A DNA stretch of 12,407 nt from a virus (taxonomy: Duplodnaviria; Heunggongvirae; Uroviricota; Caudoviricetes), in IMG/VR virus record IMGVR_UViG_2541047881_000002, positions 1 to 12,407 of that record. One strand, 5' to 3'. Below are positions 1 to 12,407 of the stretch, piece by piece (within the stretch, counting starts at the first letter, position 1; each line of letters opens with the position of its first letter). A model generated the notes under the pieces. It had not been told where the DNA came from, ran no database searches, and worked only from the letters and a program-made list of their open reading frames with translations. The translations under genes and the position numbers were made by a program.

Positions 1-3000
1 ATGCTGAAACGTCTGTTAAGTAAACTGACGGGAAACCGTCAGCAGATAGAACATCACCTAAAAAATCAGTACCAGGTTGAGGAAAACGGACTTAGCTTTC
101 CGCTATCGCTGGTTGATGATTCGCAGCTTTGGGCACTGGCATCCTGGCTAGAACAACTGGCTGAAGAAGACTATCTGATATCACTTACAGACCGGTGGTT
201 GTTGAGTTGGGACGCACTGTATCGCCTGCTGGAGGATGAGGAACATGCCAGCAGCCTGCCTCTTATCGGTGTACCTGACGTACTGCCTTTACGCGCAAGC
301 CTGAGTTCACGAGGAGCATTAAGCGATAGCGATTTTCGCGTCTGGATTGCTGAATGGGCTACGCTTCCAGCCCGCAAGCCGATCCGTTTCAGTCGTACCG
401 GTGCCATTTTAACCCATGAAAATCAGCAATACCTGTTATCGCGTGAAAACTGGGCACTCTTACAGGCAACAGAACAACTCAGTGCACAGAAAAATCAGAC
501 TCCTGGTGAAACCACTAACCAGTTGGGATGGGCCGCTATCCGCAAATGTGCGAAGCAAGCAGCCGCAAAATTTGATGATTATTTAGAAAAAACGCATGTC
601 GTCAAACCAACTTCATTGTCATTACGTCTGCGTAAAGCAACGGTTGCCGATACTGCTGTTATCGAAATTGAGCCCCATTTCGAGGACCAGCCTGCTAACT
701 GGCTAGGCAGTTTTGACAAAAACTCGCAGGTTCACGATAGCTACCGCATCCCTGGAGAGAATGGCGAACTCAGCCATGTCATTATCCCTCCCGAAGTGAA
801 AGAAGTCCTGAATTCAATACACTCGATTCCAGGCCGTCGAGTGGCCGGAAGCGAAGCGCTTTCCTTTGTTCGCAATCCTTATACCTTCCTGGGTGAAGAT
901 GCCGCCAGTGTTATTGCCCCTGAAGAACATGAACAGGCACTGTTTGATGCCAGGATTTTCTTTCATCATTTCAGGTTGATACCGCAACTGAATGCGGAAA
1001 ATAAGATCGCAGAAGTTACGCTGGTACTTGAGCCTGTTTCACCTGTTCCCCAGCCAGAAATCACTTTTGGGTTCTCAGCCCCCCGGGAGCTGGATAAATT
1101 CATACAGCAACTCGGTATTAGCGTCGCTGCACAGATGCCTGCCGGTTCATGGCAAGGTTACGAGCTGGAATTAAGTCAGTTCACTGAACAGCAGTGGCAC
1201 GATTGCCAGGCACTTCTAACTCGCTGGCAGCAAGAAATAGAAGGAAAAGAATTTAGCGATGTGCTGGATATTGCGAAGTATGGCGATCGCGTGATTGGCA
1301 TTGGTGAATTTGAAAAAATCTCCTCTCCCTGGCTGACCAAAGCGCAGAGTGAAAACTGGCTTCCAGATGACATCGATTTCTCCGCGTTTTCAGTCGAAAC
1401 ACTGTCTGGCTGGCAACCTGAAAACCTTCACCATTTCGATGAACTGCAGGAGAGAATTACTCAGGCAGAAGCTGTAGGTGAAACGCATATCACCGCACCA
1501 TGGAATGACAGCCAATTACCGTTGGATGCTGCTAAAACCTTCAGTAAGAACTGGGAAAAACAGCAAAGCACTGCAAATGAATCTCAAGGCAACGTTGCAG
1601 ATAAAACGGCCCGAGCCGTACTCAAAATTGAGCAGAATATTGAAGAAACGGCCTACATCAAACAGCGCCGCAATTCACTCCTCAATGCGCGTCATGCCGA
1701 GCCTGAAATTCCTCTGAGCCTTAAAGAGCATATCCGACTCAAAGACCATCAACGTGAAGGCGTAGCCTGGCTCCAGCAACTCTTCCTTCGTTCACCTGAG
1801 GAAACCGCAGGTTGCCTGCTGGCGGATGATATGGGGCTTGGGAAAACGCTGCAAATTCTGAGCTTCCTGGTATGGTTCATTGAAAAATTCCCGCAAGAAC
1901 CGCCAAGTCTCATTGTTGCTCCTGTCTCTCTTTTAGATAACTGGGAACGTGAACTGGACAATTTCTTCTATACCGCAGGAATACCGGTATTGAAATTGTA
2001 TGGCGAGACCATTAAAGCGGTGAAATATCCCAAACAGGCTATCCCTGCTCATCTGCAATCTCAGGGGATCAAAAACCTGCTTAAACCTGGCTGGCAGGGT
2101 GAGGCGAAAATCATCCTGACAACCTACGAAACGCTTCGCGACCAGGAGTTTTCTCTGGCACGCCAGCCGTGGTCCATTATGGTGTGCGACGAGGCACAAA
2201 AAATAAAAAACCCAGCTGCGTTAATCACACATGCGGCCAACGCGGTACAAGCCAGGTTTAAAGTGGCATGTACAGGAACACCTGTCGAAAACACACTTGT
2301 CGACCTGTGGAGCTTATTTGATTTTGCCCAGCCAGGATTGTTAGGGGCACTAAATGAATTTGGTAAACACTATGTTCGCCCCATCGAGAACGAAGATGGC
2401 CGCGATACGGAACGGTTGGAAAGCCTGCGAGCGCTGATAGAACCTCAGACTTTACGCCGAACCAAAGAAGAGGTTGCGCGTGATTTACCTCAGAAAATTG
2501 AAGTGGAAAGCTGCAAGCAATTGACGTTGTCTGGCGTGCAAAAACAGCTCTACCTTTCGTCCGTTGCAAATTGGCAACAACAGCAAGCACTGAGCGAAGG
2601 GATGCAGCAGGCCGGAACCGGTATGTTAGGTTTGTTACACCGACTGAAACTCATCTGTGCACACCCTGCAGTAGTTAATCCAGAACCACGTTTTCGTGAT
2701 AACTCACCCAAGCTTAACTGGCTGCTGAAAATACTCGCAGAACTAAAACACACCACGAAAGATAAGGTCATTATTTTTACGGAGCTTCGAGATTTACAGC
2801 GCGAACTTCAACATGCGATCCACCAAAAGTTTGGTTTCCGCCCTGTCATTATCAATGGTGATACCAGCACTAAAAGTCAAAGTCAAAACAGCCGCCAGCG
2901 CCTGATTGATGATTTTCAGGCTCAGCCTGGGTTTGGGGTGATTATTCTCTCTACGGTTGCCGTCGGATTCGGCGTTAACGTCCAGAAAGCCAATCATGTT

Positions 3001-3243
3001 ATTCATTTCACTCGCTGCTGGAACCCAGCCAAAGAAGATCAGGCAACAGACCGGGCGTACCGAATTGGGCAAACTAAAGATGTGTATGTCTATTACCCGA
3101 CGGTGAAGGACACTGAAATCACCACATTTGAAGAAACACTGGATGACCTTCTGCAGCGTCGACGTGCATTGGCCAGAGATATGCTCTGCGCTACTCCCGA
3201 TTTGAGTGGCGCGGATTTTGAGGCCATTTTGAAGGGGGCTTAA
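1..3243 (+). CDS. SNF2-family (Swi2/Snf2-type) helicase/ATPase, 1080 aa, with an uncharacterised ~560-aa N-terminal region
   Basis: Single uninterrupted ORF from ATG at 1 to TAA at 3241-3243. Translation shows SNF2 motifs: motif I LLADDMGLGKT (nt ~1819-1848), motif II MVCDEAQKIKN (DEAQ box), motif III TGTPVENTLVDLWSLFDF, and C-terminal motif VI QATDRAYRIGQ. Residues 1 to ~560 carry no motif I can recognise. Confidence 0.85.
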   Translation: MLKRLLSKLTGNRQQIEHHLKNQYQVEENGLSFPLSLVDDSQLWALASWLEQLAEEDYLISLTDRWLLSWDALYRLLEDEEHASSLPLIGVPDVLPLRASLSSRGALSDSDFRVWIAEWATLPARKPIRFSRTGAILTHENQQYLLSRENWALLQATEQLSAQKNQTPGETTNQLGWAAIRKCAKQAAAKFDDYLEKTHVVKPTSLSLRLRKATVADTAVIEIEPHFEDQPANWLGSFDKNSQVHDSYRIPGENGELSHVIIPPEVKEVLNSIHSIPGRRVAGSEALSFVRNPYTFLGEDAASVIAPEEHEQALFDARIFFHHFRLIPQLNAENKIAEVTLVLEPVSPVPQPEITFGFSAPRELDKFIQQLGISVAAQMPAGSWQGYELELSQFTEQQWHDCQALLTRWQQEIEGKEFSDVLDIAKYGDRVIGIGEFEKISSPWLTKAQSENWLPDDIDFSAFSVETLSGWQPENLHHFDELQERITQAEAVGETHITAPWNDSQLPLDAAKTFSKNWEKQQSTANESQGNVADKTARAVLKIEQNIEETAYIKQRRNSLLNARHAEPEIPLSLKEHIRLKDHQREGVAWLQQLFLRSPEETAGCLLADDMGLGKTLQILSFLVWFIEKFPQEPPSLIVAPVSLLDNWERELDNFFYTAGIPVLKLYGETIKAVKYPKQAIPAHLQSQGIKNLLKPGWQGEAKIILTTYETLRDQEFSLARQPWSIMVCDEAQKIKNPAALITHAANAVQARFKVACTGTPVENTLVDLWSLFDFAQPGLLGALNEFGKHYVRPIENEDGRDTERLESLRALIEPQTLRRTKEEVARDLPQKIEVESCKQLTLSGVQKQLYLSSVANWQQQQALSEGMQQAGTGMLGLLHRLKLICAHPAVVNPEPRFRDNSPKLNWLLKILAELKHTTKDKVIIFTELRDLQRELQHAIHQKFGFRPVIINGDTSTKSQSQNSRQRLIDDFQAQPGFGVIILSTVAVGFGVNVQKANHVIHFTRCWNPAKEDQATDRAYRIGQTKDVYVYYPTVKDTEITTFEETLDDLLQRRRALARDMLCATPDLSGADFEAILKGA

Positions 3244-3279
3244 CCGATACGAGTGGCAATACCACCAGCAGTCGAACCG

Positions 3280-3409
3280 ATTCATTTGAAACGACACGTA
3301 GCCGCGATGGATCTGTATCACCTACCGACAGCTTGGGAAAGTCCCGAATTACAAATGTTCAGGGGAATACCATAACCTGCCGGACTTATTCGTTTGGAAC
3401 GACGTGTTA
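3280..3409. repeat. Pair of imperfect 22-nt direct repeats (3280-3301 and 3388-3409, 16/22 identical, differences mostly transitions), each flanked by short inverted repeats
   Basis: ATTCATTTGAAACGACACGTAG versus ATTCGTTTGGAACGACGTGTTA. The second copy is enclosed by CGGACT (3381-3386) and AGTCCG (3416-3421); the first by GTCG and CGAC. Lies in the 520-bp non-coding gap between two convergent genes. Confidence 0.4.
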
Positions 3410-3764
3410 CGACTTAGTCCGAGGGAAACATGCCAGGTAAAAACCGAATATCCATCCTCAGCTTTAGCAAATACCTCCCCATACTCGCTACTTCATATTG
3501 AGAAGATATTGTGTTGCTCATATTGCTTTGAGCATGCTCTTCAGCGTTTACATGTGGATCGTACTACCCTGATGATCCGATGCGTTGTTTACTGCTTTTA
3601 ACCTCTATATACAAAACCCCCACTAAATATTTTTCTGAGACTAACGGTAAATCATTATCTATCATGTAGTTACGATAGAATTGCATGTATCTGGCACAAA
3701 ATAAGGTTTCATTACGTTCTATCTTGTTAAATATAAAGGGATCATTTCCTCCCAAAGTCACAAT

Positions 3765-4478
3765 CTACAGGAACGGTTTCAATAACATCGGATCAATGAT
3801 CCCCTCTGGAAAATCGTAAAGATGCTGACGCGCTGTCGTCTCCTTCAGTCCCGCTGCTTTAGCAAAATCGCTGACGGAGTAGCCTTCAGGCCACCAGCTC
3901 TGATAGTAAATATCAAAATACTGCCCCCACTCTGCGCTCATCGGGCGTCGTGATAGCTGTCGGGCAGCAGATTTCTGAGTCAGTTGATATTTCACAATAT
4001 ATTCACCAACGCTAAGACCATTCTCGACTTTTTCGCGCTGAAACTGGCGACGATGGTAAACCCAGAACAGCGCCCTAAGCGATGCGCCACCAGCTTTATG
4101 CAGCGCATTCCAGGCTCTGCGGTGCGGTATCCTGTAGCGTTGCGCGTATTCGGTTTGTGTAATGCCATGCAGAATCGCTTCACGACGATAATTTTGCTTG
4201 TGCCAGGCCCAGTCAATCTTCCAGCGGTCGCATCGCTCGCTGTAGTCCTGAGCTCTTTTCTGGCGGGCAACAGGCAACTTCAGAAAGTTTTCAAAGAGTG
4301 TATCCAGCGAGCACGCAACCGGATGGATATGCTGCGTTTGCAGACGTATCTCATTGGGCGTAAGTGGGCGATATTCGAGCCCCGTTAGACGTTCCAGCCG
4401 CCATTCATGATAGTTTTTTCGACGACGTCTATTCCCGGCATACTTCAAACGATACAGTGCCTGTTCAGCGTATGACAT
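3765..4478 (-). CDS. YagL/YfjJ-like island protein, 237 aa; C-terminal W/Y-rich domain paralogous to the C-terminus of the adjacent Rep-like protein
   Basis: ATG at 4476-4478 preceded by a strong SD (AAGGAG, 7-nt spacer); stop TAG at 3765-3767. C-terminus (SAEWGQYFDIYYQSWWPEGYSVSDFAKAAGLKETTARQHLYDFPEGI) aligns with the 315-aa protein (SPHWLRHFDRYYDNYWPCGVSVAQYCNWHDLNPSTARRYLCDYPPAV). A 14-bp overlap with the upstream gene suggests an operon. Family assignment is from recall, not a search. Confidence 0.65.
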   Translation of the reverse strand: MSYAEQALYRLKYAGNRRRRKNYHEWRLERLTGLEYRPLTPNEIRLQTQHIHPVACSLDTLFENFLKLPVARQKRAQDYSERCDRWKIDWAWHKQNYRREAILHGITQTEYAQRYRIPHRRAWNALHKAGGASLRALFWVYHRRQFQREKVENGLSVGEYIVKYQLTQKSAARQLSRRPMSAEWGQYFDIYYQSWWPEGYSVSDFAKAAGLKETTARQHLYDFPEGIIDPMLLKPFL

Positions 4479-5412
4479 ATTGAATCTCCTTTTGAAGCCA
4501 ACCCCTCAGGATGCCAGGTGAGATAACTGCTGGTGGATAATCGCAGAGATAACGCCGGGCTGTTGAAGGATTTAAATCGTGCCAATTACAGTACTGAGCG
4601 ACGCTGACTCCGCAGGGCCAGTAATTGTCGTAATAGCGATCGAAATGCCGTAGCCAGTGAGGAGATAGTTGAGGTTTTTCAGCTGCTTTTCCGCGCTGAT
4701 ACAGCTTCAGTAAACGCTGAATGCTGCGAATCTGGCTATTTGTTTCATAATCCAGAGAGTCAATCTCTGCGGGTTCATTATCACCGAGAAATAACGGGTC
4801 AAGCTTACCTGGCAGCGGACAGTAACGTTCGGCAGGTGGCTGGCATTGCTTGAGTTTGGCTGGAGTCCTGGGTTTAGGCTTTTGTTGCTTCAGTACTTTG
4901 TAGTGCTTGCGTCCGTACAACGGAATATGTTTTGCGATTCCGGTCTTAGTGGCGTATTTAGCGAAATAGCTCAACCTTAACAGAAGCTCCCCCAGGGTCT
5001 GCGAATCGCGCTTATGGACCATGTAGTATCCGTTTTTGGGAAACCAAACTTTCCCGTTAGTTGCCGAACTCCAGGTCTTCTCCACCAGCCCATTCAATAC
5101 CTTTGGTGTACGTATGTGGTTCCCGTCCACCATGAGCACACAGTGATAGTGCTGCGCTGTCGCTTTGTCATGCTCACGAACCCAGAATATATCGAAAAAA
5201 GACTTTGGATAACGAGCACGTAATACCTGGGCTAATTGCTGGCAGAAGTCCGAAATAACCTGATTGTCATCTGTATAGCTCTTGAGATGTAAATCATAGC
5301 GAACAGCCAGAAAACGCGAAGTCCGCAGATAGGTTTGATTCACCGTATCAAAAAGGGCTTCCATGATCCTGGAATCATACTCTCCCTCTGCATGAAGTAT
5401 CGGCCAGAACAC
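4465..5412 (-). CDS. YagK/YfjJ (inovirus Gp2-like) rolling-circle Rep-like protein with HUH motif, apparently 5'-truncated at the IS junction (possible pseudogene)
   Basis: The ORF has no ATG start: the first candidate is GTG at 5410-5412 with no SD, and the frame stays open for 32 more codons up to the IS end at 5509. Contains AQHYHCVLMVDG (HUH-like) and LSYFAKYATK (Y-x-x-K-Y, resembling the phiX174 gpA active-site motif YVAKYVNK as I recall it). Confidence 0.6.
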   Translation of the reverse strand: MFWPILHAEGEYDSRIMEALFDTVNQTYLRTSRFLAVRYDLHLKSYTDDNQVISDFCQQLAQVLRARYPKSFFDIFWVREHDKATAQHYHCVLMVDGNHIRTPKVLNGLVEKTWSSATNGKVWFPKNGYYMVHKRDSQTLGELLLRLSYFAKYATKTGIAKHIPLYGRKHYKVLKQQKPKPRTPAKLKQCQPPAERYCPLPGKLDPLFLGDNEPAEIDSLDYETNSQIRSIQRLLKLYQRGKAAEKPQLSPHWLRHFDRYYDNYWPCGVSVAQYCNWHDLNPSTARRYLCDYPPAVISPGILRGWLQKEIQYVIR

Positions 5413-5550
5413 TTCGTCATACAGAAAGTATCCTTGAGCATTAATCCACTGAGCTGCTTGCGAGGCCGGTATATTATTAATTACCGATGGTTTCTCGAAC
5501 TGATGATCTGAACCGCCCCGGGTTTCCTGGAGAGTGTTTTATCTGTGAAC

Positions 5551-6441
5551 TCAGGCTGCCAGATCATCGTTTCCGATGGAAGCATAATAAGCTTTTTCTG
5601 CTTCTGCCGGAGGAGTATGGCCCAGCCTTTCCAGCAATCGTCGATTGTTATACCAGTCCACCCACGTGAGTGTGGCCAGTTCCACTTCTGCACGGTTTTT
5701 CCAGCTCTTACGGTGTATTACCTCCGCTTTGTAAAGACCATTGATGCTCTCCGCCATCGCGTTGTCATACGAGTCGCCTGTACTTCCTGTTGATGCCAGT
5801 AATCCGGCTTCCTTAAGCCGCTGTGTGTAGGCCAGCGATACATACTGAGAACCTTTATCACTGTGATGGACCGTGCCGGACGGTCGACGGGCCCATAACG
5901 CCTGCTCCAGTGCATCCAGCACGAATGTCGTTTCCATGGACGATGAGACCCGCCACCCCACGATGTATCCGGCAAACACATCAATGATGAACGCCACATA
6001 GACGAAGCCCCGCCATGTGCTGACGTAAGTAAAATCAGCCACCCACAGCTGGTCAGGTCGTTCTGCCACGAACTGACGGTTTACGCGGTCGCCTGCGGCA
6101 ACGGCTTTCCGGCTGATGGTCGTACGGACCTTTTTACCCCGGAGAACACCGGCAAGTCCCATAACCGCCATGAGGCGCGCCACTGTACATCTGGCCACCC
6201 TGATTCCTTCCCGTAACAACTGACGCCAGACTTTACGCACACCGTACACCTGATGATTTTCATCGTATACGCGCTGTATCTCTCTCTTCAGCCAGTCATC
6301 GTGCTGCGCACGGGCACTGCGTTTATCCGGATGATGTCGCTGTTGCTGACAATGGTAATACGTTGACGGGGCAATATGCAGTTCGCTGCATACCGGTCCG
6401 ACCCCGTACTGCTCACGCAGCTTATCCAGCAGTGGCATCAT
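5551..6441 (-). CDS. IS3-family transposase OrfB (DDE catalytic core), 296 aa
   Basis: Translation carries the IS3-type DDE triad context (WVADFTYV ... HHSDKGSQY ... [11 protein letters not shown]). Begins ATGATG, overlapping the orfA stop in the -1 frame. Confidence 0.9.
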
Positions 6442-6449
6442 TTTTTCCA
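6438..6449 (-). other. Candidate programmed -1 ribosomal frameshift site at the orfA/orfB junction (CTGGAAAAAATGATG on the minus strand)
   Basis: A run of six A (6441-6446) immediately precedes the orfA stop TGA (6438-6440), with orfB in the -1 frame. IS3-family elements make OrfAB by -1 frameshifting; a canonical A-AAA-AAG heptamer is not present here, so the exact site is uncertain. Confidence 0.4.
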
Positions 6450-6764
6450 GAGGCGGTCGAACTCCGCCTTCGCAAAATAAGCGGAAGCCTGGCGAAGGAT
6501 ATCGTTACTGCGGCGCAGTTCACGATTTTCACGTTCCAGCTCTTTCAGACGCTGACGTTCAGCGCTGGTGAGCCCACCATCACCGCCCCCGGTATCCCGC
6601 TCATGCTGGCGAACCCAGACACGCAGAGTCTCCGGCGTACAGCCAATCTTTGGGGCAATGGAACAAATTGCCGCCCACTGTGAGTCATATTCATCCTGAC
6701 TTTCCAGAACCATACGGACTGCCCGTTGACGGACTTCGGGGGAAAAACGAGTATTTTTAGTCAT
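6438..6764 (-). CDS. IS3-family transposase OrfA (HTH and leucine-zipper-like region), 108 aa
   Basis: ATG at 6762-6764 (minus strand), 54 bp inside the left IR; ends ...RLWKK with TGA overlapping the orfB ATG. Coiled-coil-like [17 protein letters not shown] segment is typical of IS3 OrfA. Confidence 0.9.
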
Positions 6765-6847
6765 CCTGTTTACCTCTTTCTCAGGAAGTTTAGTCTCCAG
6801 GATTCCCGGGGCGGTTCACCTTGCTTCCGGCTGGTACCGTCCTTTTT

Positions 6848-6936
6848 ACAAAACAGAGAAGAGCATCACCGGACGACGGGCTCATAACCCAATCCATCCG
6901 GGCGGCAGTCACCGCAGGTGTTCTTCTCTGTTTTGT
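6848..6936. repeat. Perfect 15-bp inverted repeat (ACAAAACAGAGAAGA at 6848-6862, TCTTCTCTGTTTTGT at 6922-6936) enclosing a 59-bp GC-rich spacer
   Basis: Read directly; arms extend imperfectly (CATCACCGG / CACCTGCGG). Spacer contains GGGCTCATAACCC, an anticodon-stem-loop-like hairpin. Lies between the IS left end (6818) and the yfdP-like start (6985). Confidence 0.7.
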
Positions 6937-6984
6937 GGAGAAACTAACCGACCTTGCAGGGTCGATATGATGAGGAGCAGCAAA

Positions 6985-7347
6985 ATGGCTAGCGAACGCA
7001 GTACTGATGTGCAGGCATTTATCGGGGAGCTGGACGGCGGCGTATTTGAAACCAAAATCGGCGCAGTTCTCAGTGAAGTCGCTTCCGGTGTGATGAACAC
7101 GAAAACCAAAGGTAAGGTCTCGCTCAACCTGGAAATCGAACCGTTTGATGAGAACCGAGTGAAAATCAAACACAAACTCTCATATGTTCGCCCGACTAAC
7201 CGCGGGAAAATTTCCGAAGAAGACACCACCGAAACGCCGATGTATGTCAATCGCGGTGGTCGCCTGACTATTCTGCAGGAAGACCAGGGACAGTTACTGA
7301 CTCTTGCCGGTGAACCTGACGGAAAACTCCGCGCAGCAGGTCGTTAA
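6985..7347 (+). CDS. yfdP: YfdP-like prophage protein, 120 aa
   Basis: ATG at 6985 preceded by GAGGAG (6973-6978, 6-nt spacer); the track ORF start at 6967 lacks an SD. The 120-aa length matches K-12 CPS-53 YfdP as I recall it, and it is first in a five-gene series matching the yfdP-T lengths. Confidence 0.7.
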   Translation: MASERSTDVQAFIGELDGGVFETKIGAVLSEVASGVMNTKTKGKVSLNLEIEPFDENRVKIKHKLSYVRPTNRGKISEEDTTETPMYVNRGGRLTILQEDQGQLLTLAGEPDGKLRAAGR

Positions 7348-7412
7348 TATCGTTTTTAATTAACTGATTATTTATCTCATCACTGAATATCTTTATATAG
7401 TGAGGACTTATT

Positions 7413-8237
7413 ATGTCTCAGAACTTAGACGCAACCGCAATTAATCAAATCCATGCCCTTATTTCTGCTCAGGGTGTTAATGAAATTATCAGTAAGATTG
7501 GTGCCGATGCTGTGGCATTGCCTGAGAATTTCCGCATTCATGATCTGGAAAAATTTAATTTAAATCGCTTCCGTTTCCGTGGTGCGCTTTCCACTGCCAG
7601 CATCGATGACTTTACCCGTTATTCTAAAGATCTTGCAGATGAAGGCACCCGCTGCTTTATCGATGCTGATAATATGCGTGCCGTCAGTGTGCTTAACCTG
7701 GGTACTATTGATGAACCAGGTCACGCAGATAACACCGCCACACTCAAACTGAAAAAGACAGCACCGTTCTCTGCTCTGTTGTCTGTTAACGGCGAGCGTA
7801 ACTCCCAGAAGTCACTGGCAGAATGGATTGAAGACTGGGCCGACTATCTTGTGGGCTTTGATGCTAATGGTGACGCTATTCAGGCAACAAAAACGGCTGC
7901 GGCTGTCCGTAAAATCACGATTGAAGCAAACCAGACCGCTGATTTTGAAGATAATGACTTCAGCGGCAAACGCTCCCTGATGGAGTCTGTCGAAGCGAAG
8001 ACCAAAGACATTATGCCAGTGGCATTTGAATTTAAATGCGTTCCGTTTGAAGGTCTGAAAGAACGTCCGTTTAAATTACGCCTCAGTATTATCACTGGCG
8101 ATCGTCCTGTACTGGTTCTACGCATTATTCAGCTGGAGGCGGTGCAGGAAGAAATGGCTAACGAATTTCGTGATCTGCTTGTTGAGAAATTCAAGGACAG
8201 CAAAGTAGAAACCTTTATTGGTACTTTCACCGCCTGA
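7413..8237 (+). CDS. yfdQ: YfdQ-like prophage protein (DUF2303-type), 274 aa
   Basis: ATG at 7413 with SD GAGGA (7402-7406); stop TGA at 8235-8237. Length and position in the series match CPS-53 YfdQ (274 aa) from recall. Confidence 0.8.
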
Positions 8238-8249
8238 TTTCATTACTGC

Positions 8250-8271
8250 AAATGCCCCTGCGGGGGCATTT
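8250..8271 (+). terminator. GC-rich perfect hairpin (AAATGCCCC-tgcg-GGGGCATTT) 13 nt after the yfdQ-like stop; candidate partial intrinsic terminator or RNA-stability element
   Basis: 9-bp perfect stem with a 4-nt loop, read directly. Only a 3-T tail follows, so termination is probably partial. Confidence 0.4.
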
Positions 8272-8364
8272 ATGGAAACGTAATTTACTCAATAATCGCC
8301 GGATGGTGAGGGATTCTTTTTACCAGAATTCAGCGCGGTGCAGCGCATATACGTGGAGAACAAA

Positions 8365-8901
8365 ATGTCATTTATTAAAACTTTTTCCGGGAAGCATTTT
8401 TATTATGACAGGATAAATAAAGACGACATCGATATTAACGATATCGCGGTTTCCCTTTCAAATATCTGTCGCTTTGCCGGTCATCTTTCGCACTTCTACA
8501 GCGTCGCCCAACATGCGGTTCTTTGCAGCCAGCTGGTGCCGCAGGAATTTGCTTTTGAAGCGTTAATGCATGATGCAACAGAAGCGTATTGCCAGGACAT
8601 TCCCGCACCACTGAAACGCCTTCTTCCTGACTATAAACAAATGGAAGAAAAAATAGACGCCGTAATCCGTGAGAAATACGGGTTACCCCCAGTTATGAGT
8701 ACGCCCGTGAAATATGCCGATCTCATCATGCTGGCAACCGAACGCCGCGATCTCGGGCTTGATGATGGCTCTTTCTGGCCTGTACTGGAAGGTATCCCGG
8801 CAACAGAGATGTTCAACGTGATTCCACTGGCTCCGGGCCATGCCTACGGGATGTTTATGGAACGCTTTAACGAGTTATCGGAGTTACGCAAATGCGCATG
8901 A
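8365..8901 (+). CDS. yfdR: HD-domain metal-dependent phosphohydrolase, YfdR-like, 178 aa
   Basis: ATG at 8365 with SD GGAGAA 8 nt upstream; the track start at 8338 is in-frame but has no SD. HD-domain signature: H...HD...D pattern in YSVAQHAVLC ... LMHDATEAY. Stop TGA at 8899-8901 overlaps the next start. Confidence 0.8.
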   Translation: MSFIKTFSGKHFYYDRINKDDIDINDIAVSLSNICRFAGHLSHFYSVAQHAVLCSQLVPQEFAFEALMHDATEAYCQDIPAPLKRLLPDYKQMEEKIDAVIREKYGLPPVMSTPVKYADLIMLATERRDLGLDDGSFWPVLEGIPATEMFNVIPLAPGHAYGMFMERFNELSELRKCA

Positions 8902-9254
8902 ATGTTTTCGAAATGGAAGGGTTTCTTCGTGGGAGATGTGTACCGCGAGATCTGAAAGTAAATGAAACAGATGCTGAATACCTAGTGCGTAAATTCGATG
9001 CGCTTGAAGCTAAATGTGCAGCACAGGAAAACAAAGTAATACCAGTGTCAACTGAACTGCCACCAGCAAATGAAAGTGTTTTGTTATTCGATGCTAACGG
9101 AGAAGGCTGGCTAATTGGCTGGCGTTCTCTCTGGTACACCTGGGGACAAAAAGAAACCGGAGAATGGCAGTGGACATTTCAGGTCGGGGACCTTGAAAAC
9201 GTCAATATCACTCACTGGGCAGTAATGCCAAAAGCACCGGAGGCTGGAGCATAA
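8892..9254 (+). CDS. yfdS: YfdS-like prophage protein, 120 aa, Trp-rich C-terminus
   Basis: ATG at 8892 (alternative ATG at 8898 overlapping the upstream TGA as ATGA); length matches YfdS (120 aa) from recall. Confidence 0.7.
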   Translation: MRMNVFEMEGFLRGRCVPRDLKVNETDAEYLVRKFDALEAKCAAQENKVIPVSTELPPANESVLLFDANGEGWLIGWRSLWYTWGQKETGEWQWTFQVGDLENVNITHWAVMPKAPEAGA

Positions 9255-9559
9255 TGACCACTTTTACCGACAAAGAACTGATTAAAGAAATTAAAGAGCG
9301 TATCAGCAGCCTTGACGTGCGAGACGATATTGAGCGCCGTGCTTATGAAATCGCACTCCTATCTCTGGAAGTAGAACCAGATGAACGCGAAGCTTATGAA
9401 TTATTCATGGAAAAGCGTTTCGGTGACTTAGTAGATCGTCGGAGAGCAAAAAACGGCGATAACGAATACATGGCATGGGATATGACTCTCGGTTGGATCG
9501 TCTGGCAGCAACGAGCTGGTATCCATTTTTCAACAATGTCACAGCAAGAGGTGAAATAA
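9254..9559 (+). CDS. yfdT: YfdT-like prophage protein, 101 aa
   Basis: ATG at 9254 overlaps the upstream TAA (TAATG); its own stop TAA at 9557-9559 overlaps the next ATG (TAATG). Length matches YfdT (101 aa) from recall. Confidence 0.7.
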   Translation: MTTFTDKELIKEIKERISSLDVRDDIERRAYEIALLSLEVEPDEREAYELFMEKRFGDLVDRRRAKNGDNEYMAWDMTLGWIVWQQRAGIHFSTMSQQEVK

Positions 9560-9909
9560 TGGAGCCATACAGCCTCACACTCGATGAGGCCTGTCATTTT
9601 CTCAAGATATCCAGACCGACTGCCATTAACTGGATACGCACAGGGCGTCTTCAGGCAACACGCAAAGATCCCACTAAGAATAAATCTCCTTACCTCACAA
9701 CACGACAAGCCTGCATTGCGGCTCTTCAGTCTCCGCTGCATACTGTCCAGGTGAGCGCGGGTGATGGCATAACAGAGGAAAGAAAATGTCACTCTTCCGC
9801 AGAGGTGAAATATGGTACGCCAGTTTCACATTGCCGAACGGTAAAAGATTTAAACAGTCTCTTGGAACAAAGGACAAAAGGCAGGCGACAGAACTCCATG
9901 ACAAGCTAA
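9559..9909 (+). CDS. xis: Excisionase / AlpA-type HTH DNA-binding protein (Xis-like); 3' extent uncertain
   Basis: N-terminal [35 protein letters not shown] matches the excisionase-family HTH pattern (LTLDEA..FL.+SR.T+..WI+.G+L); SD AGAGGTGA upstream. The ORF runs to 9909, overlapping the integrase start by 124 nt in another frame. Confidence 0.65.
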
Positions 9910-10949
9910 AGGCTGAAGCATGGCGGGTCAGCAAACTTGGTGAAATACCTGATATAACGTTCGAGGAAGCGTGTGTCAGGTGGCTTGAAGAGAAAGCACA
10001 TAAAAAATCACTGGACGATGACAAAAGCCGGATCGGATTCTGGCTTCAACATTTCGCAGGAATGCAACTAAGAGACATTACTGAATCAAAAATTTATTCA
10101 GCAATGCAGAAAATGACGAACCGGCGTCATGAGGAAAACTGGAAACTCAGGGCAGAAGCATGCAGAAAAAAAGGGAAACCTGTTCCAGAATACACGCCAA
10201 AACCAGCGTCCGTTGCAACGAAGGCTACGCATCTTTCATTTATAAAGGCCCTACTAAGAGCCGCAGAGCGTGAATGGAAAATGCTGGATAAGGCACCAAT
10301 TATTAAAGTGCCCCAACCAAAGAATAAACGGATCCGCTGGCTGGAGCCCCATGAAGCACAAAGGCTGATTGATGAATGTCCGGAGCCATTAAAGTCTGTT
10401 GTTGAATTTGCACTGGCAACAGGCCTAAGACGCTCGAACATCATCAACCTTGAATGGCAACAAATAGATATGCAGCGCCGGGTGGCATGGATAAACCCGG
10501 AAGAGAGTAAATCAAACCGCGCAATTGGCGTTGCGCTGAATGATACTGCATGTCGCGTATTGAAAAAACAAATCGGGAATCATCACCGTTGGGTATTTGT
10601 GTACAAGGAAAGCTGTACCAAACCAGACGGAACGAAAGCGCCAACAGTCAGGAAGATGCGGTATGACGCAAACACAGCCTGGAAAGCGGCGCTGAGACGG
10701 GCTGGTATTGATGATTTCAGATTTCACGACTTGAGACACACCTGGGCAAGTTGGCTGGTTCAAGCCGGAGTCCCGTTGTCAGTGTTACAGGAAATGGGAG
10801 GCTGGGAGTCTATCGAAATGGTTCGTCGATATGCTCACCTTGCACCTAATCACCTTACCGAACACGCACGGCAAATAGACTCGATCCTGAACCCATCGGT
10901 CCCAAATTTGTCCCAGTCAAAAAATAAGGAAGGTACTAATGATGTGTAA
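9786..10949 (+). CDS. int: Phage-type tyrosine site-specific integrase (lambdoid / Rac IntR-like), 387 aa
   Basis: ATG at 9786 with SD GAGGA (7-nt spacer). Catalytic signature present: [10 protein letters not shown] (Arg), HDLRHTWAS (H-x-x-R), VRRYAHL (Tyr). Stop TAA at 10947-10949, 14 bp from the tRNA 3' end. Confidence 0.93.
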
Positions 10950-10990
10950 CTTATTGATTTAAATGGTGCCGATAATAGGAGTCGAACCTA
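10950..10990. other. Putative attL core of the integrated element, overlapping the 3' end of thrW
   Basis: The integrase stop is 14 bp from the tRNA 3' end and convergent with it, the usual geometry for tRNA-targeting tyrosine integrases. Exact core boundaries cannot be set without the matching att copy. Confidence 0.4.
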
Positions 10991-11039
10991 CGACCTTCGC
11001 ATTACGAATGCGCTGCTCTACCAACTGAGCTATATCGGC
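10964..11039 (-). tRNA. thrW: tRNA-Thr, anticodon CGU, 76 nt with encoded CCA
   Basis: Reverse complement of 10964-11039 reads GCCGATATAGCTCAGTTGGTAGAGCAGCGCATTCGTAATGCGAAGGTCGTAGGTTCGACTCCTATTATCGGCACCA: 7-bp acceptor stem, D-arm GCTC/GAGC, anticodon loop TTCGTAA (CGT), T-loop TTCGACT, 3' CCA. Position next to proA matches the E. coli proA-thrW arrangement. Confidence 0.93.
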
Positions 11040-11079
11040 CCTGAAAGGACATGTTCACGAACGTGAATCACGGTGGACA

Positions 11080-11108
11080 AGGTTAAAACTAACCGGGCGA
11101 TGCGTCAA
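11080..11108 (-). promoter_or_regulatory. Candidate sigma70 promoter for thrW (-35 TTGACG at 11103-11108, 17-bp spacer, -10 TAACCT at 11080-11085, minus strand)
   Basis: Hexamers read on the minus strand upstream of the tRNA 5' end (11039). The -10 is weak, so the call is tentative. Confidence 0.3.
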
Positions 11109-11153
11109 TGGCCTTGTGAATCAAATGGCTACTTTTGCATCACCCGATTTTAT

Positions 11154-12407
11154 TTACGCACGAATGGTGTAATCACCAATGCCGATCCACTTGTAAGTGG
11201 TCAGTGCTTCCAGCCCCATTGGGCCACGCGCGTGGAGTTTTTGTGTGCTTACCGCCACTTCCGCACCCAGTCCAAACTGGCCGCCGTCGGTAAAACGCGT
11301 AGAGGCGTTAACGTAAACAGCGGAAGAATCCACTTCGTTAACAAAACGCTGGGCGTTGCGCATATCGCGGGTCAGGATCGCATCGGAGTGTTGTGTGCCG
11401 TGTTCACGAATATGGGCGATGGCATCGTCAAGATCGCTGACGATTTTGACGTTCAAATCTAATGACAGAAACTCATCGTCATACTCTTCCGCTTTAACCG
11501 CCACCACCTTCGCGGGGCCTGTCTGCAACTGCGCCAGCGCAGCTGCATCTGCGTGTAATGTCACGCCGCTTTCCGCCATTTGTTTGCTTAATGCGGGCAG
11601 GAAGCTATCTGCTATGTTTTTATTTACCAGCAACGTTTCAACCGTATTACATGTGCTCGGACGCTGGGTTTTCGCGTTGACGATTACTTTCAGGGCTTCA
11701 GCGATCTCTGCACTTTCATCAACGTAAATATGGCATACGCCTATACCACCAGTGATCACCGGGATCGTCGACTGTTCACGGCACAGTTTATGCAAACCAG
11801 CGCCACCACGCGGGATCAGCATGTCGATGTATTTATCCATACGCAGCATTTCACTGACCAGCGCACGGTCAGGATTATCAATCGCCTGCACGGCACCCGC
11901 CGGTAAGCCACAGGATTTCAGGGCGTCCTGAATCACCGCCACCGTTGCCGCGTTAGTGCGACAGGTTTCTTTGCCACCACGCAGGATCACCGCATTACCG
12001 GTTTTCAGGCACAGCGAAGCGACATCAACCGTCACGTTCGGGCGCGCTTCATAAATCACGCCAATAACCCCCAGCGGTACGCGACGACGCTCAAGACGCA
12101 GGCCGCTGTCCAGTACGCCGCCATCGATTACCTGCCCCACCGGATCGGCGAGGTTACACACCTGGCGTACATCGTCGGCAATGCCTTTCAGCCGTGCGGG
12201 CGTCAGTGCCAGACGGTCAAGCATCGCTTCGCTAAGGCCATTGGCTCGCGCGTCAGCAACATCCTGGGCGTTAGCGTTGAGGATGATTTCGCTTTGTGCT
12301 TCCAGTTCATCGGCGATTTTTTCCAGCACGCGATTTTTTTCGCGGCTGGAGAGTTGCGCTAATTTATACGAGGCTTGCTTCGCGGCAATGCCCATTTGTT
12401 CCAGCAT
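11154..12407 (-). CDS. proA: Gamma-glutamyl phosphate reductase (glutamate-5-semialdehyde dehydrogenase), complete 417 aa
   Basis: ORF from ATG at 12405-12407 to TAA at 11154-11156; translation [30 protein letters not shown]... matches E. coli ProA as I recall it, with the expected thrW gene immediately downstream. Confidence 0.97.

Follow-up and report, generated by a model that had tools for sequence, protein, structure and literature searches.

Five co-directional genes, encoding proteins of 120, 274, 178, 120 and 101 amino acids (aa), run into xis and int in a stretch of DNA of 12,407 nucleotides (nt) recorded as viral (Caudoviricetes; IMG/VR record IMGVR_UViG_2541047881_000002, positions 1 to 12,407; hereafter, the window), and the locus raises the question of what these genes are and what they contribute to a phage. 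A preliminary description had regarded them as an uncharacterised arrangement, related to the yfdP-T genes of the Escherichia coli K-12 prophage CPS-53; the gene series itself agrees with both the list of open reading frames (ORFs) and the sequence. Based on sequence comparison, we are nearly certain that the five genes are orthologues of K-12 yfdP-T, and that they lie here in their native setting, a lambdoid, serotype-converting prophage of the Shigella flexneri SfV/SfIV type at tRNA-Thr thrW. The literature already covers the cluster, its location beside xis-int and the single activity known for it.

Membership of the yfdP-T family is borne out by protein identities of 96-99% and by an identical gene order. 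Indeed, residues shared with the K-12 proteins amount to 118/120 for YfdP, 271/274 for YfdQ, 174/178 for YfdR, 115/120 for YfdS and 97/101 for YfdT. Identity is 99-100% when the comparison is made to orf32-orf28 of Shigella phage SfV, with YfdS and YfdT being the same as orf29 (120/120) and orf28 (101/101), respectively; Xis shares 114 of 116 residues with its SfV counterpart (98%), and Int 381 of 387. At the DNA level, positions 6985-10949 are 99.7% identical to Shigella phage SfIV over their full length and 99.1% identical to SfV. The SfV record carries the order cI, orf33, orf32 to orf28, xis, int, attP, gtrA, gtrB and gtrV, and an intact E. coli prophage at thrW is arranged in the same manner. 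What had been taken for a novel arrangement beside xis-int thus corresponds to orf32-28/xis/int of SfV and orf34-30/xis/int of SfIV, and has been in the literature since the genome papers of these two phages; orfs 30-34 of SfIV were described as hypothetical proteins, clustered likewise in SfV (orfs 28-32) with more than 98% identity (PMC3851460), and Noguchi and Katayama also note the SfV homologues (PMC4776307).

The block is widespread. At least 80% of it is present in 558 of 5,426 complete E. coli genomes, where RefSeq employs the names yfdP, 'YfdQ family protein', 'yfdR: 5'-deoxynucleotidase' and yfdT, and its yfdP-yfdS part occurs at 95-97% identity in Stx2c phages, the cdtI phage, mEp460 and others. 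The succession of a cI repressor gene, a gap, yfdP, yfdQ, an HD-domain gene, variable genes and xis-int recurs in phages of Klebsiella, Citrobacter, Salmonella and other E. coli strains; in Klebsiella, the 175-aa product of the gene following yfdQ is 63% identical to YfdR. A Xenorhabdus locus has cI, yfdP and yfdQ, and carries no HD-domain gene, xis or int after them. From the order of genes across these phages, yfdP-yfdQ therefore represents the constant core, mostly accompanied by the HD-domain gene, while yfdS and yfdT belong to the variable part. According to a survey of 314 lambdoid phages from 2025, these genes are common in early-left operons, are neither universal in, nor limited to, phages that lack a recombination module, and probably do not represent hidden recombination genes (PMC12315714). 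In three proteins (P0011, P0074 and P0160; 166-284 aa) the YfdP (PF27127) and DUF2303 domains occur in a single chain; deletions or frameshifts between the neighbouring genes probably gave rise to these chains, which would then not be true fusions.

All five ORFs can be considered as real genes rather than chance frames, since homologues are abundant and the ratios of nonsynonymous to synonymous substitution rates (dN/dS) with respect to K-12 are low (0.10 for yfdP, 0.08 for yfdQ, 0.06 for yfdR, 0.11 for yfdS and 0.09 for yfdT); values for yfdP and yfdQ compared to distant copies range from 0.10 to 0.20. The features of the window are collected in Table 1.

Table 1. Coordinates of the yfdP-T cluster and of other features in the window.
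Feature	Positions	Strand	Description
yfdP	6985-7347	+	120 aa; Pfam PF27127 YfdP; PHROG 204
yfdQ	7413-8237	+	274 aa; DUF2303/PF10065
yfdR	8365-8901	+	178 aa; predicted YfbR-like HD-domain phosphohydrolase; K-12 orthologue binds DnaA
yfdS	8892-9254	+	120 aa; C-terminal DUF551; overlaps yfdR end
yfdT	9254-9559	+	101 aa; no domain; TAATG overlaps with yfdS and xis
xis	9559-9909	+	116 aa; excisionase, PHROG 2907 family
int	9786-10949	+	387 aa; tyrosine integrase; 124-nt overlap with xis
Hairpin 3' of yfdQ	8250-8271	+	GC-rich, directly 3' of yfdQ stop; AAATGCCCC-TGCG-GGGGCATTT; 9-bp stem, 4-nt loop; weak T tract
Leader RNA	6843-6941	+	Structured; 25-bp outer stem around two inner hairpins; three-way junction of about 100 nt
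Small hairpin	6947-6966	+	Between leader and yfdP ribosome-binding site; sequence varies in relatives, hairpin kept
DicF-like terminator hairpin, 3' half	6819-6847	+	Closes STnc100-like leader in intact relatives; 5' half removed by IS629
IS629	5509-6818	-	Complete, 1310 bp; orfA 6438-6764, orfB 5551-6441; ends read
att core	10947-11009		Common to phage attP and bacterial site; spans 3' part of thrW; from homology breakpoints
thrW	10964-11039	-	tRNA-Thr(CGT), integration site; 14 nt after int stop; followed by proA

The junctions, read directly from the sequence, show stop/start overlaps only at yfdR/yfdS, yfdS/yfdT and yfdT/xis. The latter two consist of TAATG (9252-9256 and 9557-9561), in each case with a Shine-Dalgarno sequence ahead of it. 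At yfdR/yfdS the motif is ATGA (8898-8901); the 120-aa form of YfdS starts at the ATG at 8892, six bases before this motif, with GGAG located 8 nt upstream, which generates a 10-nt overlap with yfdR. In contrast, yfdP-yfdQ and yfdQ-yfdR are separated by gaps of 65 and 127 nt, with no overlap at either. The overlapping codons noted at first for the series are hence present at its three 3' junctions and missing from the other two, and since both gaps and the hairpin 3' of yfdQ lie upstream, coupling of translation, also proposed for the entire cluster, is possible only for yfdR-yfdS-yfdT-xis. The hairpin, whose folding z-score is only -2.4, may terminate transcription partially or stabilise the mRNA, and might separate yfdP-yfdQ from yfdR-yfdS-yfdT-xis-int as units of expression.

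In K-12, CPS-53 (KplE1) carries the same five genes (b2359-b2363) in the same order, and with the same lengths and spacing. Homology covers 6966-9615, beginning 19 nt before yfdP and ending 57 nt inside xis, with DNA that is 96.5% identical; unlike the window, K-12 has no structured leader upstream of yfdP. The K-12 genes had been said to lie far from the integrase, but this is an artefact of reading the prophage in its integrated form: yfdT is followed by ypdJ, a 5' stump of the xis gene of the window, and then by torI, which encodes an excision factor, and attR, so that both clusters end at an excision gene near an att site. In the K-12 record, intS stands beside attL/argW and torI beside attR, at opposite ends of the prophage. 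The genes for the recombination directionality factor and the integrase of KplE1 are transcribed separately, the intS promoter overlaps attL, and, once the element is circular, intS is found directly on the other side of attP (PMC2951348). The ypdJ ORF (12095-12235 of the K-12 locus, L002, versus 9475-9615 of the window) is composed of an out-of-frame upstream read and the first 18 residues of Xis; its frame corresponds to an upstream-extended form, which RefSeq lists in other strains as a 144-aa 'helix-turn-helix protein'. As judged from these alignments, K-12 has evidently exchanged the SfV-type xis-int for the torI-attP-intS type, and the cluster adjoins the recombination module in both cases.

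We then considered the individual proteins. Both domain assignments made at the outset, DUF2303 for the second protein and an HD domain for the third, hold: YfdQ matches DUF2303 (PF10065) with 309 bits over residues 7-272, above the cut-off and at full length, and the YfdR motif H50...H69-D70...D118 aligns with VAQH, LLHDA and KKAD of PDB 2gz4 (E 3e-14), with the H/HD/D residues being kept in the Klebsiella homologue. YfdR also matches PHROG 318, 'deoxyribonucleoside 5' monophosphate phosphatase' (E 3e-110). Similarity to YfbR is more distant: the score is 25.2 bits against Pfam YfbR-like PF12917 (cut-off 25.9; residues 41-104 only), 20.5 bits against the NCBIfam equivalog PRK03826 (cut-off 122), and the match to YfbR itself (PDB 2paq) is weak (E 0.88). 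These profile and structure matches class YfdR as a predicted relative of YfbR within the HD superfamily, and not as an equivalog; its nucleotide affinities are given as much below those of YfbR (Zimmerman 2008, as cited in PMC4776307). An HD-GYP signature was not seen when the sequence was read by eye, unscored against an HD-GYP model. The family is represented in 333 phage records, including phages of Caulobacter and Bacillus as well as virulent and jumbo phages. The HD-domain gene does not directly precede xis-int, as first described; yfdS and yfdT intervene. In YfdS, the C-terminal DUF551 scores 22.2 bits versus a cut-off of 22, and YfdT belongs to PHROG 660 and has no domain. The two show no significant similarity (E 0.34), though they are interchangeable in the K-12 assay described below. 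The N-terminal 45-50 residues or so of YfdS and of YfdT match other PHROG families, and in many phages the shared DNA ends 118 nt into yfdT, both of which point to recombination joints inside yfdS and yfdT. Lastly, xis matches the PHROG 2907 excisionase profile at full length (E 1e-50), a profile that fits the 116-aa form starting at the TAATG overlap (9559), as well as HTH_17, and int matches PF00589 with 164 bits.

What do these genes do? The initial statement that K-12 YfdR binds DnaA and inhibits replication initiation on overexpression is confirmed by the literature. K-12 YfdR binds domain I of DnaA, Phe46 being important, and competes with DiaA and DnaB (Noguchi and Katayama 2016, PMC4776307). 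Multicopy yfdQ and yfdR together with either yfdS or yfdT inhibit initiation at oriC in vivo, with yfdP being unneeded, and extracts oversupplied with YfdQRST inhibit initiation in vitro (PMC4776307). DnaA binding was shown for the K-12 proteins, from which the YfdR of the window differs at 4 of 178 residues. From the gene order (cI, leader, yfdP to xis, int), we infer that the cluster is the distal part of an 'early-left' operon. The block could then be an early host-takeover set, made together with Xis and Int upon prophage induction; expression on induction is suggested by the leader on the repressor side and by the coupling to xis. The proteins would keep the host chromosome from starting further rounds of replication, and might also trim the deoxyribonucleoside monophosphate pool, in favour of phage replication, in a possible parallel to DicB/DicF of Qin, cell-cycle inhibitors at the same operon position. 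Taken by itself, this induced block of host replication is a tentative proposal, to which we give somewhat less than an even chance; the explanation as a whole, in a compromise judgement that joins the identity of the genes to their mechanism, we consider likely.

Several points weigh against this explanation. The DnaA effect was seen only on overexpression, deletion of yfdQRST had no replication phenotype, and the authors themselves raise the possibility of an artefact (PMC4776307); our literature search found no test of yfdP-T in a phage that is still inducible. Since yfdP is dispensable in the K-12 assay, the explanation does not account for the conserved yfdP-yfdQ pair, and searches of YfdP and YfdQ against PDB folds, as well as of YfdQ against viral structures, returned nothing informative. 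YfdR-like HD proteins occur in virulent phages of hosts distant from E. coli, and a general role in nucleotide metabolism accounts for this better than one specific to DnaA. Finally, no consensus promoter of the sigma-70 type is present on the + strand between 6700 and 11100.

In a different reading, which we hold to be unlikely, yfdP-yfdQ and YfdR would form an unrecognised host-takeover or counter-defence unit of lambdoid phages that lack N, switched on via the leader RNA; such a unit could work, for example, as a complex capturing DnaA/DnaB on behalf of the phage origin, or as one eliminating a nucleotide signal.

Alternatively, the cluster could benefit the lysogen as a set of 'morons', expressed without induction and aiding host tolerance to stress from H2O2, acid, methyl methanesulfonate (MMS) and hydroxyurea. 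K-12 strains that have lost CPS-53, yfdQ or yfdS are listed as more sensitive to H2O2, and those without yfdQ as more sensitive to MMS (Wang 2010 and Rooney 2009, as cited in PMC4776307), while multicopy yfdQRS or yfdQRT increases hydroxyurea resistance (PMC4776307); these stress phenotypes are, however, weak. Even in stumps such as those of K-12 and the window, the ORFs have stayed intact and evolve under purifying selection, but this selection could equally stem from recent descent from, and recombination with, active phages that are 99% identical, and both the overlap with xis and the leader on the repressor side point to induced expression and not to lysogeny. We thus find a lysogen benefit distinctly unlikely as the function of the cluster.

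It had also been suggested that the HD enzyme acts on second messengers as part of an anti-defence module, in which it would degrade immune signals (cyclic oligonucleotides, cyclic CMP/cyclic UMP, glyco-cyclic ADP-ribose (gcADPR)) or counter deoxyribonucleoside triphosphate depletion, with YfdP and YfdQ as partners. HD hydrolases are able to cleave cyclic nucleotides, the genes stand in the variable accessory region of temperate phages, and the YfdR family is widespread in phages; the low affinities of YfdR for ordinary nucleotides, as they are cited in PMC4776307, would leave room for another true substrate. Nevertheless, its closest solved relatives are 5'-nucleotidases of the YfbR type (2gz4 and, weakly, 2paq), no HD-GYP signature was recognised by eye, and PADLOC, a library of defence and not of anti-defence proteins, gave no match at E <= 0.01 for any of the seven proteins. 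In the titles, abstract openings and passages covered, no paper linked yfdR, yfdQ or DUF2303 to defence. The suggestion accordingly fared poorly, and we deem it quite improbable.

The weakest proposal, that YfdP, YfdQ and YfdR replace the recombination (Rec) module or the helicase loader of lambdoid phages that lack N, for instance by recruiting DnaA and DnaB, draws on the absence of recognisable Rec genes, and in some cases of a helicase loader, from phages of the SfV/ST64B/LLS type (PMC12315714) and on the binding of YfdR to the DnaA residue that contacts DnaB (PMC4776307), but is very improbable given that phage ArgO145 has the cluster alongside a complete Rec module (PMC12315714) and that YfdQ and YfdP do not resemble annealases, exonucleases or loaders in fold. 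Our searches provided no direct support for any of these last three explanations, the weak stress phenotypes of K-12 being the one exception.

Upstream of yfdP lies a structured leader RNA, which is incidental to the cluster and may be the most novel item of the locus. It folds with -51.2 kcal/mol (RNAfold; z -8.5), and further copies were located in the intact E. coli prophage (L001, 14859-14957), in SfV (L003, 7855-7960) and in an additional locus (L006, 5429-5535). The leader is conserved in at least 62 phage records. Searching with the motif in the first of its inner loops returned 114 copies that had sufficient flanking sequence, mostly in viral contigs; 85 of these copies have a YfdP ORF no more than 500 nt downstream. 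When 25 distinct copies were aligned, 95.2% of cells were paired and nine pairs changed on both sides (GC in 14 and CG in 11 at one position, for example), a number that none of 500 shuffles reached; the covariation score was 0.156, versus at most 0.059 with partners slid. A covariance model scored 118.6 bits on the + strand versus 41 on the - strand, and this asymmetry, along with the G-U pairs, indicates that the leader is an RNA in the sense of yfdP.

Rfam has no match for the leader hairpin, and gathering-level scans of six related loci revealed no family there. In the intact prophage, the roughly 220 nt before the hairpin (L001, 14643-14866) match Rfam STnc100 with 43.4 bits (gathering score 47; E 1e-7), and 14804-14858 gives a weak DicF match (E 0.28). 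It is in the loop of this DicF-like terminator that IS629 lies in the window, where only the 3' half is left. Leader motifs are also present in K-12 Qin (L133), in the interval from dicF to dicB, and in the C1-controlled leader of the P1 ban operon (L134, 2501-2532); P1 also carries two weaker copies of the hairpin model (L134, 2142-2256 and 2419-2516). The structure might serve as a site for RNase III or as an element of leader control. An antiterminator of the HK022 put type was considered and rejected: put elements are of about 70 nt, with two stem-loops, and are paired behind both early promoters as putL and putR (PMC9378689), whereas the leader is a three-way junction of about 100 nt with a single copy in each prophage and no copy on the cro side. 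Likewise, we discarded a longer form of YfdP (227 aa in phage Kati), as the extension has stops in phiNP and Flotzy, is not protein-like and coincides with the covarying hairpin.

The present context of the cluster was established by pairwise BLAST of the window against four reference loci, which split it into three blocks. Positions 1-5509 are 99.98% identical to a defence island that adjoins thrW in other E. coli (L004), where it consists of a type I restriction-modification system, zorA, zorB, zorC, zorD, a hypothetical gene and a YagK/YfjJ gene. This is followed by IS629, whose ALIL frameshift pseudoknot was identified at 6367-6483 (121.5 bits). The third block, 6819-12407, is 99.5% identical to the intact prophage, thrW and proA, with 6819 onward corresponding to L001 14835 onward. 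SfV-type xis and int abut the 3' end of thrW next to proA; homology to SfV ends at 11009 and homology to the prophage-free locus (L004) restarts at 10947, which delimits the att core. The gtrA-gtrB-gtr(type), immunity and structural genes are absent from the window. As homology to the phage ends at 6819 on the IS629 side and the other end of the prophage has been lost, what is present here is a remnant and not a prophage, namely a stump of 4.2 kb (6819-11009).

IS629 breaks the prophage 166 nt upstream of yfdP and joins the stump to the Zorya island. Its flanks belong to different elements and lack a target-site duplication (left flank ATC, right flank CCT), arguing for an IS-mediated deletion or recombination event instead of a simple insertion. 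The event eliminated the remainder of the prophage along with the initial 23 nt of the YagK/YfjJ gene; because it also took the promoter and most of the leader, yfdP-T, although intact, are probably poorly expressed in the window. Neither complete E. coli genomes nor contigs representing one genome per species yielded the exact IS629/leader junction, and no complete E. coli genome carries 80% or more of the window in one place.

Further observations concern the neighbourhood. The window begins exactly at the ATG of zorD (1-3243, + strand), which encodes a 1080-aa SNF2-type helicase of a type I Zorya system, and the stump here separates the Zorya island from thrW. The YagK/YfjJ ('inovirus Gp2-type') gene (4465-5509, - strand) has a 14-nt overlap with a hypothetical gene of 237 aa (3765-4478), and both are part of the island. 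In the early-right region of SfV, Rfam places a C4 antisense RNA (82 bits) beside an RNA of the isrK family (64 bits) at L003 4826-5014 (- strand), within orf37, which suggests that SfV carries an immunity element of the P1-like C4/ant type.

As the finding is real, correctly named and already known, its value as a discovery is small; the leader RNA upstream of yfdP is perhaps a more novel lead than the cluster. The analysis does correct a misreading, in that the K-12 genes are near the integrase once the prophage is drawn as a circle, and it shows the widely cited K-12 yfdQRST result to be directly applicable to Shigella and E. coli phages that are still live (SfV, SfIV, Stx2c phages). Approximately one fifth of lambdoid phages are without known recombination genes, and many carry the block.

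Among known systems, the closest are SfV (orf32-28), SfIV (orf34-30) and SfII, which are 99.1-99.7% identical in DNA from yfdP to int and have the same integrase, excisionase, thrW site and leader; the window differs from them in having no gtr genes, structural genes or immunity region, and in being cut by IS629 at 6818/6819. More distant are ST64B and 118970_sal3 of Salmonella, phiNP of Citrobacter, Flotzy and LLS of E. coli, and Klebsiella prophages, all with the trio of yfdP, yfdQ and an HD-domain gene. Here too the trio lies downstream of cI with the same leader hairpin, and its proteins are 52-64% identical, but genes for ParB-like proteins, exonucleases and others replace yfdS/yfdT after the HD-domain gene, and the integrases are different. 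YfdR itself has the HD fold and the H...HD...D metal ligands in common with YfbR (2PAQ) and with Atu1052 of A. tumefaciens (2GZ4); unlike YfbR, with which its sequence similarity is weak, it binds DnaA in K-12. By analogy, dicF-dicB of Qin would represent a similar case, as an early operon under repressor control that blocks a step of the host cell cycle, although its proteins are unrelated to YfdP-T and its target is cell division (FtsZ/MinC) and not DnaA. The kil gene of lambda is likewise an early-operon block of the host cell cycle.

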